Shown in pieces: positions 32,470 to 33,232 of a DNA stretch of 64,000 nucleotides. The stretch is from a virus: UHGV virus genome UHGV-0134996. One strand, 5' to 3'. Position 1 is the first letter of the stretch. Each line of letters begins with the position of its first letter. The translations under genes and the position numbers were made by a program. The notes beneath the pieces were generated by a model. That model made no database searches. It was given only the letters and a program-made list of their open reading frames with translations, and had not been told where the DNA came from.

Positions 32470-33232
32470 CGGAAAGAGCATTCCTGGTGGACCTGTAGAT
32501 TGGGATATGAACCCGTTACAGGAGAATACTCTTACCTGTTACGTGCTCCGTTTCGTGGAGCTAACGGCGGGTGATCGGGCCGCACCAGACTGGACTTATT
32601 TCAGCGTTATGCTCATGCCAGAGAATCAAACTGTGATGGTCGGTGCTGAACTCCGACACAGGGTTGTAGCAAGCCCCGCAAAGCGCGCACTACTGTAGTT
32701 GCGGCACATCAGCCTGTGCATTCACCACAATGTTGAGAACACTGGTTGTCACGCTGCAACGCAACATTTATTCGTAGATTGGGATATGACCCCGTTACGC
32801 CAGTGTTCTCAACGTTGTAGTGCCGGTTACGGTTCCGGCCAGGCCTCTTCCTCAACGGGGGGTTCTCCATACGGACTACCGTTTATTGGTCGTTCCTGCG
32901 GTTTATGTTGTGAAGCCAGATGCTTATCTTCTGGTTGCTTCAAAGAGCTGCACTTCATCACAACGGTAAGAGCACTCGATGCATTTAAGCCAAGCCCCAT
33001 AAGGGAGAATGCCCTTACCTGTTGTGTTGTGATGACCGGTGCTGATCTCCGGCTTGCGGTTATTTCAGACTCTCACGGGCGTTTAATTGCCCCGCCGAAC
33101 AGCTCTTTTCCGCAATAGCTGCAATGTCTTTCGCGCATCAGCCTGCGCATTCATCACAACGGTAAGGGTACTTCGTAGGGATTCGAACCCTCTGCCAAGC
33201 TCGGCGATCTCCGACGTCGCAAAATACCCTTA
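32470..33232 (-). repeat. array of degenerate tRNA-like repeat units (pseudo-tRNA candidates)
   Basis: Recurring CATCAGCCTG(C/T)GCATTCA(C/T)CACAA, CCCTTACCTGTTGTG and T-arm-like GGGATTCGAACCC / GGGATATGA(A/C)CCC, each in 7-16-bp inverted repeats. Confidence 0.5.

Follow-up and report, generated by a model that had tools for sequence, protein, structure and literature searches.

A minus-strand array of tRNA-shaped elements and long hairpins in the ban-operon leader region of a P1-like phage

The DNA analyzed here (the window) is a stretch of 64,000 nucleotides (nt) from the virus genome UHGV-0134996, which represents a P1-like phage; its positions 32250-34100 share 98% identity with phages JL22 and P1. 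The minus strand carries, in order, dmt (34072-36495), the C1 operator and promoter Pban (~34050-34077), a leader of ~680 nt, the transfer RNA (tRNA) genes for tRNA-Asn and tRNA-Thr, ~920 nt without a minus-strand open reading frame (ORF), tciA (start codon at 32315), tciB, tciC, a tRNA with a CAU anticodon, and ban. Within the window, ARAGORN and Rfam called only tRNA-Asn, tRNA-Thr, and tRNA-Met(CAU). The element under study is an array of long hairpins (units A to E) and tRNA-like elements (TLE1 to TLE4) that occupies the ~920 nt and extends upstream of tRNA-Asn. Pban, trnA, trnT, tciABC, and ban all lie on the minus strand, which is also the strand of the array; the array is a strand-specific modular RNA that shares its transcript and orientation with the tRNAs. 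Its components, in the direction of transcription, are listed below; folding energies are those of the minus-strand RNA, MFE denotes minimum free energy, and the 916-nt fold is the MFE structure of 916 nt taken together.

33597-33683, minus strand: hairpin unit A, inverted repeat I2 and first of the hairpin family (-48.8 kcal/mol, z = -6.4)
33321-33396, minus strand: tRNA-Asn(GUU), a genuine tRNA of the array transcript (ARAGORN; Rfam tRNA model, 74.5 bits)
33243-33318, minus strand: tRNA-Thr(UGU), a genuine tRNA of the array transcript (ARAGORN; Rfam tRNA model, 72.9 bits)
33155-33241, minus strand: hairpin unit B, starting 2 nt past the CCA of tRNA-Thr (-51.3 kcal/mol, z = -4.2)
33028-33158, minus strand: TLE1, whose isolated MFE structure is a cloverleaf-like four-way junction
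32959-33026, minus strand: hairpin unit C, which folds both singly and in the 916-nt fold
32909-32962, minus strand: TLE2, a 54-nt mini element without a central domain and the weakest part of the array
32724-32822, minus strand: hairpin unit D, seen in the 916-nt fold (-55.6 kcal/mol, z = -5.3)
32632-32729, minus strand: TLE3, whose isolated MFE structure closes the acceptor and forms the D and T hairpins
32465-32543, minus strand: hairpin unit E, seen in the 916-nt fold (z = -3.0)
32349-32468, minus strand: TLE4, STnc100-like (-47.6 kcal/mol, z = -2.6)

A preliminary description of this locus had reported at least three degenerate tRNA-like units downstream of tRNA-Thr, with shared blocks and T-arm-like segments, each unit enclosed by an inverted repeat. 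The shared blocks are real. The 5′ hairpin arm CACAACAGGTAAGRG occurs four times at ≤2 mismatches (33680-33666, 33241-33227, 33026-33012, and 32543-32529), compared with 0.12 copies expected, and 0 of 100 shuffles reached four; the 25-nt block GTGRTGAATGCRCAGGCTGATGYGC, which is the reverse complement of the CATCAGCCTG..CACAA block noted previously, occurs twice (33157-33133 and 32728-32704), with 0 copies expected by chance. Copies of both sequences are confined to the minus strand and to this region. The T-arm-like segments (GGGTTCGAATCCC at 33190-33178, GGGGTCATATCCC at 32793-32781, and GGGTTCATATCCC at 32514-32502) and the inverted repeats were also found at the places described, including a pair of 23-nt arms (32723-32745 and 32800-32822) with 91% complementarity. 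The count and boundaries of the units needed revision: four hairpin units lie downstream of tRNA-Thr and a fifth, unit A, lies upstream of tRNA-Asn, and although the hairpins are real, the conserved tRNA-like fold, which had gone unnoticed, is located mainly between them.

Every unit folds into a long hairpin, with z-scores from -3.0 to -6.4 and 21-29 paired positions. A typical hairpin consists of CACAAC, a bulged A, GGUAAGRG.., an insert, ..CYCUUWCC, and GUUGUG. Unit A is located upstream of tRNA-Asn, immediately after a messenger module of the transfer-messenger RNA (tmRNA) type (the tag module, described below). Unit B has the sequence CACAAC-A-GGUAAGGGUA ... UACCCUUACC-GUUGUG, and its helices (33241-36 with 33160-55 and 33234-20 with 33175-61) are present in the 916-nt fold; its insert, of a type also seen in viral contigs L029 and L127, holds the T-arm-like GGGUUCGAAUCCC (33190-33178). 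Unit C has an extended base, CAUCACAAC/GUUGUGAUG (33035-26 with 32964-55), and an insert, CCCUUAUGGGGCUUGGCUUAAAUGCAUC, that is common to FelixO1-like phages; in its homologue from phage Moogle (L012), the outer stem covaries (AAUAUU/AAUAUU). The stem of unit D (GUUGAGAACACUGG/CCAGUGUUCUCAAC) is unrelated in sequence but stands at the same place, with the same architecture as in the other units; the unit D insert carries GGGGUCAUAUCCCAAUCUAC, and phage mEp460 has the same inner motif inside yet another stem. Unit E has the sequence CGUAAC-A-GGUAAGAGUAUUC ... GAAUGCUCUUUCC-GUUGCG, with the insert GGGUUCAUAUCCCAAUCUAC. The sequence GGGKUCAUAUCCCAAUCUAC is common to the inserts of units D and E. 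Across the array, the T-arm-like inserts are the most variable part.

The TLEs alternate with the long hairpins on the minus strand and follow a common plan. A 7-bp acceptor 5′ strand (UGUGAUG, UGUGGUG, or UGCGGUG) is followed by three linker bases and a D-like hairpin (GCRCA/GGCUGA/UGYGC); after a variable center of 0-170 nt, which stands in place of the anticodon arm, come a T-like hairpin (GYCGG/AGWUCAGCA/CCGRY) and, with 0 nt between them, the acceptor 3′ strand (CAUCACA or CACCGCA). The D-like and T-like loops are complementary (GCUGA/UCAGC), and this pairing becomes ACUGA/UCAGU in CMS-2020a. TLE1 comprises the acceptor strand UGUGAUG (33158-52), AAU, the D-like hairpin GCGCA/GGCUGA/UGCGC (33148-33), a 79-nt center, the T-like hairpin GCCGG/AGAUCAGCA/CCGGU (33053-35), and the acceptor strand CAUCACA (33034-28); it is 97-98% identical to segments in mEp460, Stx2 phages, and IME207. 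In TLE3 (UGUGGUG, AAU, GCACA/GGCUGA/UGUGC at 32719-04, a 46-nt center, GUCGG/AGUUCAGCA/CCGAC at 32657-39, and CAUCACA at 32638-32), the changes in the D stem and T stem relative to TLE1 are compensatory. TLE4 comprises UGCGGUG, AAU, GCG/GCUAAG/CGC, a center, CCGGG/AGGCA/CCCGG, and CACCGCA, and phage D6 has the compensatory T stem CCUGG/CCAGG relative to CCGGG/CCCGG in TLE4. TLE2 is reduced to UGUGAUG, AAG, the D-like UGC/AGCUCUUUGAA/GCA, a single A, the T-like CCAG/AAGAUAAGCAU/CUGG, and CUUCACA; homologues with better acceptors occur in Sergei (L014; UGUGGUG/CACCACA) and Kpn_1825 (L008; UGUGAUG/CGUCACA). In isolation, TLE1, TLE3, and TLE4 fold to the cloverleaf-like TLE shape. We rejected CCACCA as a tRNA-type 3′ end, as it is a helix strand in which the change from CACCAC to CAUCAC covaries with the change from GUGGUG to GUGAUG.

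Like tRNA genes and pseudogenes, the TLEs have a 7-bp acceptor and D-like and T-like hairpins, with the T hairpin stacked on the acceptor, and they are co-oriented with real tRNAs in the same arrays. They differ from tRNA genes in having no anticodon arm, no T- and D-loop consensus (the loops instead pair with each other), and no CCA, and in escaping tRNA models. The earlier statement that the repeats are not canonical cloverleaves agrees with ARAGORN and the Rfam tRNA covariance model, which gave no tRNA call within 32250-33240, even at E ≤ 10.

Additional pieces of this type precede two of the hairpins. The T-like hairpin CCGG/AACCGUAA/CCGG (32838-32823) plus CACUACAAC is located 5′ of unit D, and the hairpin GCUCC/ACGAAAC/GGAGC (32561-32545) is located 5′ of unit E. 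Units D and E are thereby each preceded by a small hairpin plus CACNNCAAC (32838-32814 and 32561-32538, minus strand), equivalent to a T-like hairpin and acceptor 3′ strand that lack a 5′ counterpart; judging from these sequences, the pieces look like remnants of further TLEs.

Structural conservation across relatives is present: the helices covary among unrelated phages. For the hairpins, we compared 26 distinct units from unrelated phages, which include 22 different inner-stem sequences. With the register shifted by the bulge, RNAalifold found no more than the outer 6 pairs of the collapsed hairpins, and pairing was instead tallied per sequence. On the tRNA strand, the mean hairpin has 19.9 bp and an energy of -25.5 kcal/mol, and the set contains 51 G·U pairs; for the reverse complements, the mean is -20.7 kcal/mol and the G·U total is 18. 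When 3′ arms were swapped between units, the mean was -16.4 kcal/mol, and the most stable mean among 200 swaps was -20.0 kcal/mol. The energies and the G·U excess are a signature of sense-strand RNA helices. For the TLEs, we used a 22-pair model (acceptor, D stem, T stem, and pairing between the D loop and T loop) and 26 distinct sequences chosen by their D- and T-arm motifs. In this set, 98.6% of cells were paired, compared with 24-49% in slid registers, and eight pairs had changed on both sides; 0 of 500 shuffles reached the observed values. TLE acceptors taken by position only, rather than by motif, had 98.4% of cells paired, with double changes from G5-C68 to A-U and from G7-C66 to U-A. 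The modules exist, and selection acts on their helices at the RNA level, on the minus strand.

The same hairpin data bear on a DNA-level explanation, in which the inverted repeats are recombination or cassette boundaries (attC-like or based on microhomology) that exchange tRNA and RNA cassettes. The flanks CACAAC and GUUGUG resemble the attC inverse core and core (RYYYAAC and GTTRRRY), the inserts are hypervariable, and modules have been shuffled among unrelated phages. In addition, canonical P1 (L001, NC_005856) lacks TLE1 and unit C, a 196-nt difference relative to window positions 32964-33160 that is bounded by GTTGTGATGAA repeats. However, the disparity between 51 and 18 G·U pairs, with one strand pairing better, points to RNA; GCACAAC and GTTGTGA each miss one position of the attC consensus; the flanks belong to covarying acceptor helices; and the neighbors are dmt and tciA, with no integrase adjoining the array. 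We consider this explanation very improbable.

Matches to pieces of the array were found in 223 phage records, and matches to the leader in 336. Carriers of the modules include P1-like phages and phage-plasmids, lambdoid phages (mEp460 and Stx2 phages), the P22-like phage HK620, the T1-like phage DP01, the 9NA-like phage Sergei, the FelixO1-like phage Moogle, and Ackermannviridae such as Magnus. The modules have spread among unrelated enterobacterial phages and stand in the same arrays as real tRNAs. In mEp460, they are located on the side of the repressor gene away from cro, which would correspond to a PL-operon position; in HK620, they are located between pR′/qut and the late terminator. Of the 53 D-arm motifs, 34 lie no more than 1 kb from a tRNA on their own strand, and none is near opposite-strand tRNAs only. 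In relatives, hairpin units directly follow a tRNA CCA, and real tRNAs occur immediately after the CACCACAAC acceptor 3′ strand or, in D6, immediately before a hairpin unit; they include tRNA-Ser in D6, CMS-2020a, and Kpn_1825, and tRNA-Ser and tRNA-Arg in T1-like contigs. Slots equivalent to those of the modules hold intact tRNAs: a tRNA-Tyr between tRNA-Asn and tRNA-Thr in Ro157c2YLVW, and, inside the D6 array, the tRNA-Ser, which lies directly upstream of the unit E homologue. Of 5426 complete E. coli genomes, 845 contain TLE1, with 95-100% identity in 868 of the 889 records matched.

These distributions can be weighed against the suggestion that the repeats are decaying tRNA genes, that is, functionless pseudogenes left by turnover of a phage tRNA cluster. 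Such decay would account for T-arm-like inserts such as GGGUUCGAAUCCC, for the tRNA-Leu-like D arm carried by Magnus, for the intact tRNAs in equivalent slots of relatives, and for the variation in module content among close relatives. Against it, the tRNA-like inserts are the least conserved parts, whereas the stems and the elements between hairpins are kept by compensatory changes with a strand-specific G·U excess; TLE1 keeps 95-100% identity in most of the matching E. coli records and in unrelated phages; and no tRNA model finds the units. Decay is, in our judgment, quite improbable. Of the three options in the preliminary description, decaying tRNA genes are thus weakly supported, and processing signals or structured regulatory RNAs fit best; that description was right to place a structured, tRNA-related RNA within the ban transcript and on the strand of the tRNAs.

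In the annotation of P1 (NC_005856), two ORFs on the plus strand, upl and plp, fill the ~920 nt, and the promoters P1upl and P2upl are predicted; the window has plus-strand ORFs of 63 and 139 amino acids (aa). If these ORFs were protein-coding genes, the repeats would be incidental. The P1 Plp sequence (125 aa) and the window ORF of 139 aa share their first 93 residues and then diverge completely, at the module indel. A Pfam search with the upl and plp ORFs identified no significant match, the only hit having 13 bits (E = 0.087). The ORFs run over modules that are intergenic or non-coding in other phages, and RefSeq has no annotation under TLE1 among the 25 E. coli records listed (including six P1-like plasmids). 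A protein-coding explanation is hardly credible, and upl and plp (window positions 32507-33118, plus strand) are probably spurious, wrong-strand artifacts of ORF calling. In Magnus (L011, 900-2000) and SJ46 (L006, 1799-2682), several very small “hypothetical proteins” are annotated over hairpin, TLE, and tag modules, likely the same kind of misannotation.

An Rfam scan of 32250-34100 at E ≤ 10 identified only tRNAs, sub-threshold matches to STnc100 and tmRNA, and microRNA-type noise on the hairpins. The STnc100 match (RF02076) is to TLE4, with 39.2 bits (E = 1.5e-6) over model positions 31-147 of 206, and TLE1, TLE2, and TLE3 had no STnc100 match in the same scan. In the cmscan alignment, the outer stem of STnc100 coincides with the TLE4 acceptor stem (UGCGGUG...CACCGCA), and TLE4 has the STnc100-type closing 7-bp stem and flanking hairpins in a phage context. 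Other known RNAs were dismissed: a hammerhead-like CUGAUG...GAAA has an incomplete core and no Rfam hit; known ribozymes, Y RNA, and riboswitches have no Rfam match, and a YrlA hit merely spans the two tRNAs; type III toxin-antitoxin RNA repeats were dropped, as there is no toxin and the units are not identical short repeats; and a retron msr/msd was dropped, as there is no reverse transcriptase.

STnc100 is a prophage small RNA (sRNA) of unknown function located 75 nt downstream of stx2 (PMC12370729), and it is structurally related to PasD (preprint 10.64898/2026.05.13.724894). These prophage sRNAs are found downstream of Q or stx (preprint 10.64898/2026.05.13.724894; PMC12370729); PasD adjoins Q, whereas PasA and PasC adjoin TerB-like genes, the family to which tciA belongs (preprint 10.64898/2026.05.13.724894). 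STnc100, PasD, and TLE4 are each a multi-branched RNA with a 7-bp closing stem, a hairpin three bases past its 5′ strand, and a hairpin abutting its 3′ strand, and they are alike in being phage-borne in leader or late-transcript regions. They differ in that every Pas sRNA is said to end in an intrinsic terminator, a feature absent from the P1 TLEs. No tRNA-like shape, array, or spacer hairpins are described in the STnc100 and PasD papers (PMC12370729; preprint 10.64898/2026.05.13.724894), and the supplement of the Pas preprint contains no sequence matching the array. A literature search with sequence strings and tag peptides found no paper. Based on sequence and predicted structure, TLE4 appears to be a relative of the prophage sRNA STnc100. 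The preliminary description had mentioned neither this link nor the upstream tag module, nor the conflict with the upl and plp annotation.

On balance, and with moderate confidence, we favor the interpretation that this is a non-coding minus-strand array that matures as a polycistronic precursor of tRNAs and tRNA-like RNAs from the C1-controlled leader of the ban operon. The array would be cotranscribed with tRNA-Asn and tRNA-Thr in that leader, each module consisting of a spacer hairpin (~20 bp, with a variable insert) and a TLE, and the primary transcript would be matured like a polycistronic tRNA precursor. RNase P would cut on the 5′ side of each acceptor-like stem, the recognized shape being the 12-bp stack of acceptor and T stem (7 + 5 bp). 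The long hairpins would act as spacers or insulators between near-identical acceptor strands, and they are probably also sites of RNase III cleavage or 3′-end processing. The expected products are two tRNAs, several stable tRNA-like small RNAs, and the tciABC-ban mRNA. TLE4 abuts the tciA ribosome-binding site and ends 33 nt before the tciA start codon; therefore, processing of TLE4 could determine where the tciABC-ban mRNA begins. Once released, the RNAs may act as Hfq-type regulators, or on the trans-translation machinery (SmpB and the ribosome). We infer both the processing and the function of the array, and cleavage by RNase P and RNase III is predicted from shape alone.

Hairpins processed by RNase III are found in polycistronic transcripts such as T7 early RNA, rrn operons, and the dicBF operon. 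The units described here resemble them in being ~20-bp helices with small internal loops between functional RNAs of one transcript, and their mean of 19.9 bp is close to two turns of double-stranded RNA. They differ in having variable inserts of 20-130 nt in their loops and bases that overlap the neighboring acceptor strands, and their cleavage is predicted only.

Hfq-type regulation has been reported for the STnc100/PasD relatives. When P1vir infects a Δhfq host, tciA is over-induced and tciB and tciC are under-induced (preprint 10.64898/2025.12.28.696737), a result compatible with, but no proof of, regulation at TLE4 and tciA.

Several observations weigh against a processed array of tRNA-shaped RNAs. 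TLE4 falls short of the STnc100 gathering score (47), and the TLEs go undetected by every Rfam tmRNA model. Support from folding is weak for TLE1 (z = -1.1), TLE3 (z = -0.7), and TLE2 (z = 0.12, not significant). The TLEs have no conserved CCA end, and the alanine identity pair G3·U70 is absent, their acceptors having U3-A70. The HK620 element has GCCA at its end. In the TLE comparison, variation in the D and T arms is low and biased because the sequences were picked by those motifs. The absence of TLE1 and unit C from P1 means that individual modules are dispensable. Finally, the acceptor 3′ strand CACCACAAC is also complementary to GUUGUGGUG after the next hairpin, and a hairpin can therefore gain 3-4 bp at the cost of two neighboring acceptor stems. 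In the 916-nt MFE structure, the acceptor strands of TLE1, TLE2, and TLE3 pair across the hairpins rather than closing the TLEs, whereas TLE4 closes its own acceptor. Two topologies compete, and covariation cannot separate them in tandem copies.

Upstream of the array, the leader contains two further features.

33862-33888, minus strand: intrinsic terminator GCCCAUCUUCGGGUGGGCG followed by U7, closing the region annotated in P1 as “dicF-like”
33684-33861, minus strand: tmRNA-type messenger module (Rfam tmRNA_permuted, 24.1 bits over 33768-33873; gathering score 47)

The tag module consists, in order, of a leader hairpin (33861-33816), a frame-setting UAAAU, the tag frame, a stem like helix 5 (H5), an H-type pseudoknot, and a hairpin. 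The tag frame, GCA AAC GAU GAU CUG AUG AUG GUA GCG GCC UAA (33800-33768), encodes ANDDLMMVAA*. The module has a GCN resume codon, a hydrophobic, Ala-rich tag end, and a stop codon in helix 5, as expected of a tmRNA, all outside the interval first described. Sub-threshold matches to tmRNA_permuted were found at the same place in DP01, Magnus, and Moogle (26-30 bits), and the module also occurs in HK620 and in T1-like, FelixO1-like, N4-like, and Ackermannviridae phages. When a scan of viral contigs specified the upstream bases only, every homologue had the 10-codon tag frame; the tags include ANDDLMMVAA, ANEEMYLAVA (HK620), ANDEQFLAVA, ANDDVVLMAA, and others, and some changes are synonymous, one variant having GCT AAT GAT in place of GCA AAC GAT. 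Among relatives, the pseudoknot has five Watson-Crick variants of stem 2 (CCAG/CUGG, CCAA/UUGG, CCGA/UCGG, CUAG/CUAG, and GUCG/CGAC) and six of stem 1. ARAGORN called no tmRNA in the window or in any enterobacterial copy, and no tRNA-like domain was detectable for the tag module; in the Rfam scan, beta_tmRNA reached 14.1 bits relative to a threshold of 84. A 5′ tRNA-like half was sought upstream of the tag and is not present; DP01 and Moogle instead have promoter-like hexamers ~45 nt upstream of the resume codon. The sequence GACCA upstream of the tag was rejected as a CCA end, since it aligns with GACA of permuted tmRNAs and HK620 has GAUCA.

In a first scan of viral contigs, ARAGORN called 45 of 134 loci as permuted two-piece tmRNAs. 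Of five permuted calls that we inspected, four show a long hairpin separating the CCA end from the acceptor 5′ strand; the fifth, from Moogle, is false, as ARAGORN assembled it from parts of real tRNAs. Bona fide permuted tmRNA genes called by ARAGORN on viral contigs are found in L060 (377-777), L015, L027, L042, and L125, each with a long intervening hairpin. Jumbo contigs are among the sources; L060 comes from one of 353 kb, and its intervening hairpin has a T-arm-like AAGGUUCGAAUCCUU.

The hairpin units of P1 hold the same position as the intervening hairpins, between one acceptor 3′ strand and the next 5′ strand, and the permuted tmRNA acceptors (GGGGGUG/CACCUCC) share positions 4-7 (GGUG/CACC) with the TLE acceptor UGUGGUG/CACCACA. 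In both permuted tmRNAs and the P1 region, moreover, UAAAU precedes a tag frame that begins GCA AAC GA., and an H5-like stem and a pseudoknot containing the linker GUAACAGAAU come after it. By contrast, G3·U70, CCA, and an acceptor 5′ strand ahead of the tag are all missing from the P1 region, whose tRNA-like parts are in tandem, with variable centers instead of a messenger domain. We infer from these likenesses that the modules derive from a permuted tmRNA gene, as a statement of origin and not of family membership. The source would be the tRNA-like domain (TLD) and intervening hairpin of a circularly permuted phage tmRNA gene, with the tag module still upstream.

A more direct role in trans-translation can be considered, in which the TLEs are tmRNA TLD derivatives that serve as SmpB or ribosome decoys, like the TLD-only RNA of mycobacteriophage DS6A, or that assemble in trans with the tag module into a split tmRNA. 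The retained tag frame with its synonymous changes and tmRNA-like ends, the covarying tmRNA-type pseudoknot, and the alignment of tmRNA_permuted to the tag region in four phages (24-30 bits) are consistent with this role, as are the TLE acceptor positions 4-7 and placement beside a hairpin. TLE2, moreover, comprises in 54 nt an acceptor, D, and T without a center, and a TLD-only RNA has been reported to inhibit tmRNA (PMC4131195). The DS6A RNA keeps recognizable tmRNA TLD features and is included in the tmRNA database (PMC4131195, PMC11915505), the supplement of which gives no phage names; it resembles TLE2 as a small phage RNA with little beyond acceptor, D, and T, but TLE2 is matched by no model, and its own fold is not significant. 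Other evidence stands against a trans-translation role: G3·U70 and a conserved CCA are absent, ARAGORN and the tmRNA models fail to recognize the enterobacterial copies and the array, respectively, and, given the promoter-like site ~45 nt before the resume codon in DP01 and Moogle, the tag module there is without a 5′ acceptor strand. We regard such a role as unlikely.

A broader proposal, tentative and itself rather unlikely, is that P1 and hundreds of enterobacterial phages and prophages carry a dismantled, circularly permuted tmRNA that acts on ribosome rescue. Its parts would be a messenger module, which lacks its own tRNA-like domain but whose proteolysis-type tag remains under peptide-level selection, and tandem TLD derivatives without the alanine pair and with variable centers. 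It might work as a trans-assembled tmRNA, as SmpB or ribosome decoys, or through phage-specific degron tagging, and STnc100 and PasD would be its neofunctionalized offshoots.

If the favored interpretation of a processed tRNA-like array is correct, P1 would be re-annotated with an RNA array in place of upl and plp, and STnc100 and PasD would be placed, structurally and evolutionarily, among tRNA-shaped scaffolds that have exchangeable centers and are separated by processing hairpins. Approximately one complete E. coli genome in six carries the module, as do many therapeutic-type phages, and the only Rfam match of the array is the sub-threshold STnc100 hit. The tag module raises the question of why enterobacterial phages keep a tmRNA tag frame without a recognizable tRNA-like domain. 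Annotation pipelines call small hypothetical proteins across such arrays, as in Magnus and SJ46.

With respect to transcription, Pban/Op72 lies upstream of the tag module, and the terminator at 33862-33888 lies between the two. This strong terminator, which ends the “dicF-like” region (33862-33953, minus strand), is only ~180 nt downstream of Pban; therefore, the tag module, tRNAs, array, tciABC, and ban need read-through or another promoter. Inside the array, we found neither a sigma-70-like promoter nor a terminator. The segment 33912-34009 has ~80% identity to lambdoid and Stx2 phages.

In Moogle (L012), a gap without annotation in the tRNA cluster contains a circularly permuted tRNA-like arrangement (~795-870, plus strand) with the order T arm, ACCCUUC, G, CCA, AACA, GAAGGGU, and D arm. 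Elsewhere in the window, there are two separate matches to the C4 antisense RNA (3064-3254 and 54576-54782, both minus strand), one of which has isrK beside it and the other an a1/b1 target match, suggesting that this phage-plasmid has two immI-type modules. The window also has a sok antitoxin RNA at 50471-50645.

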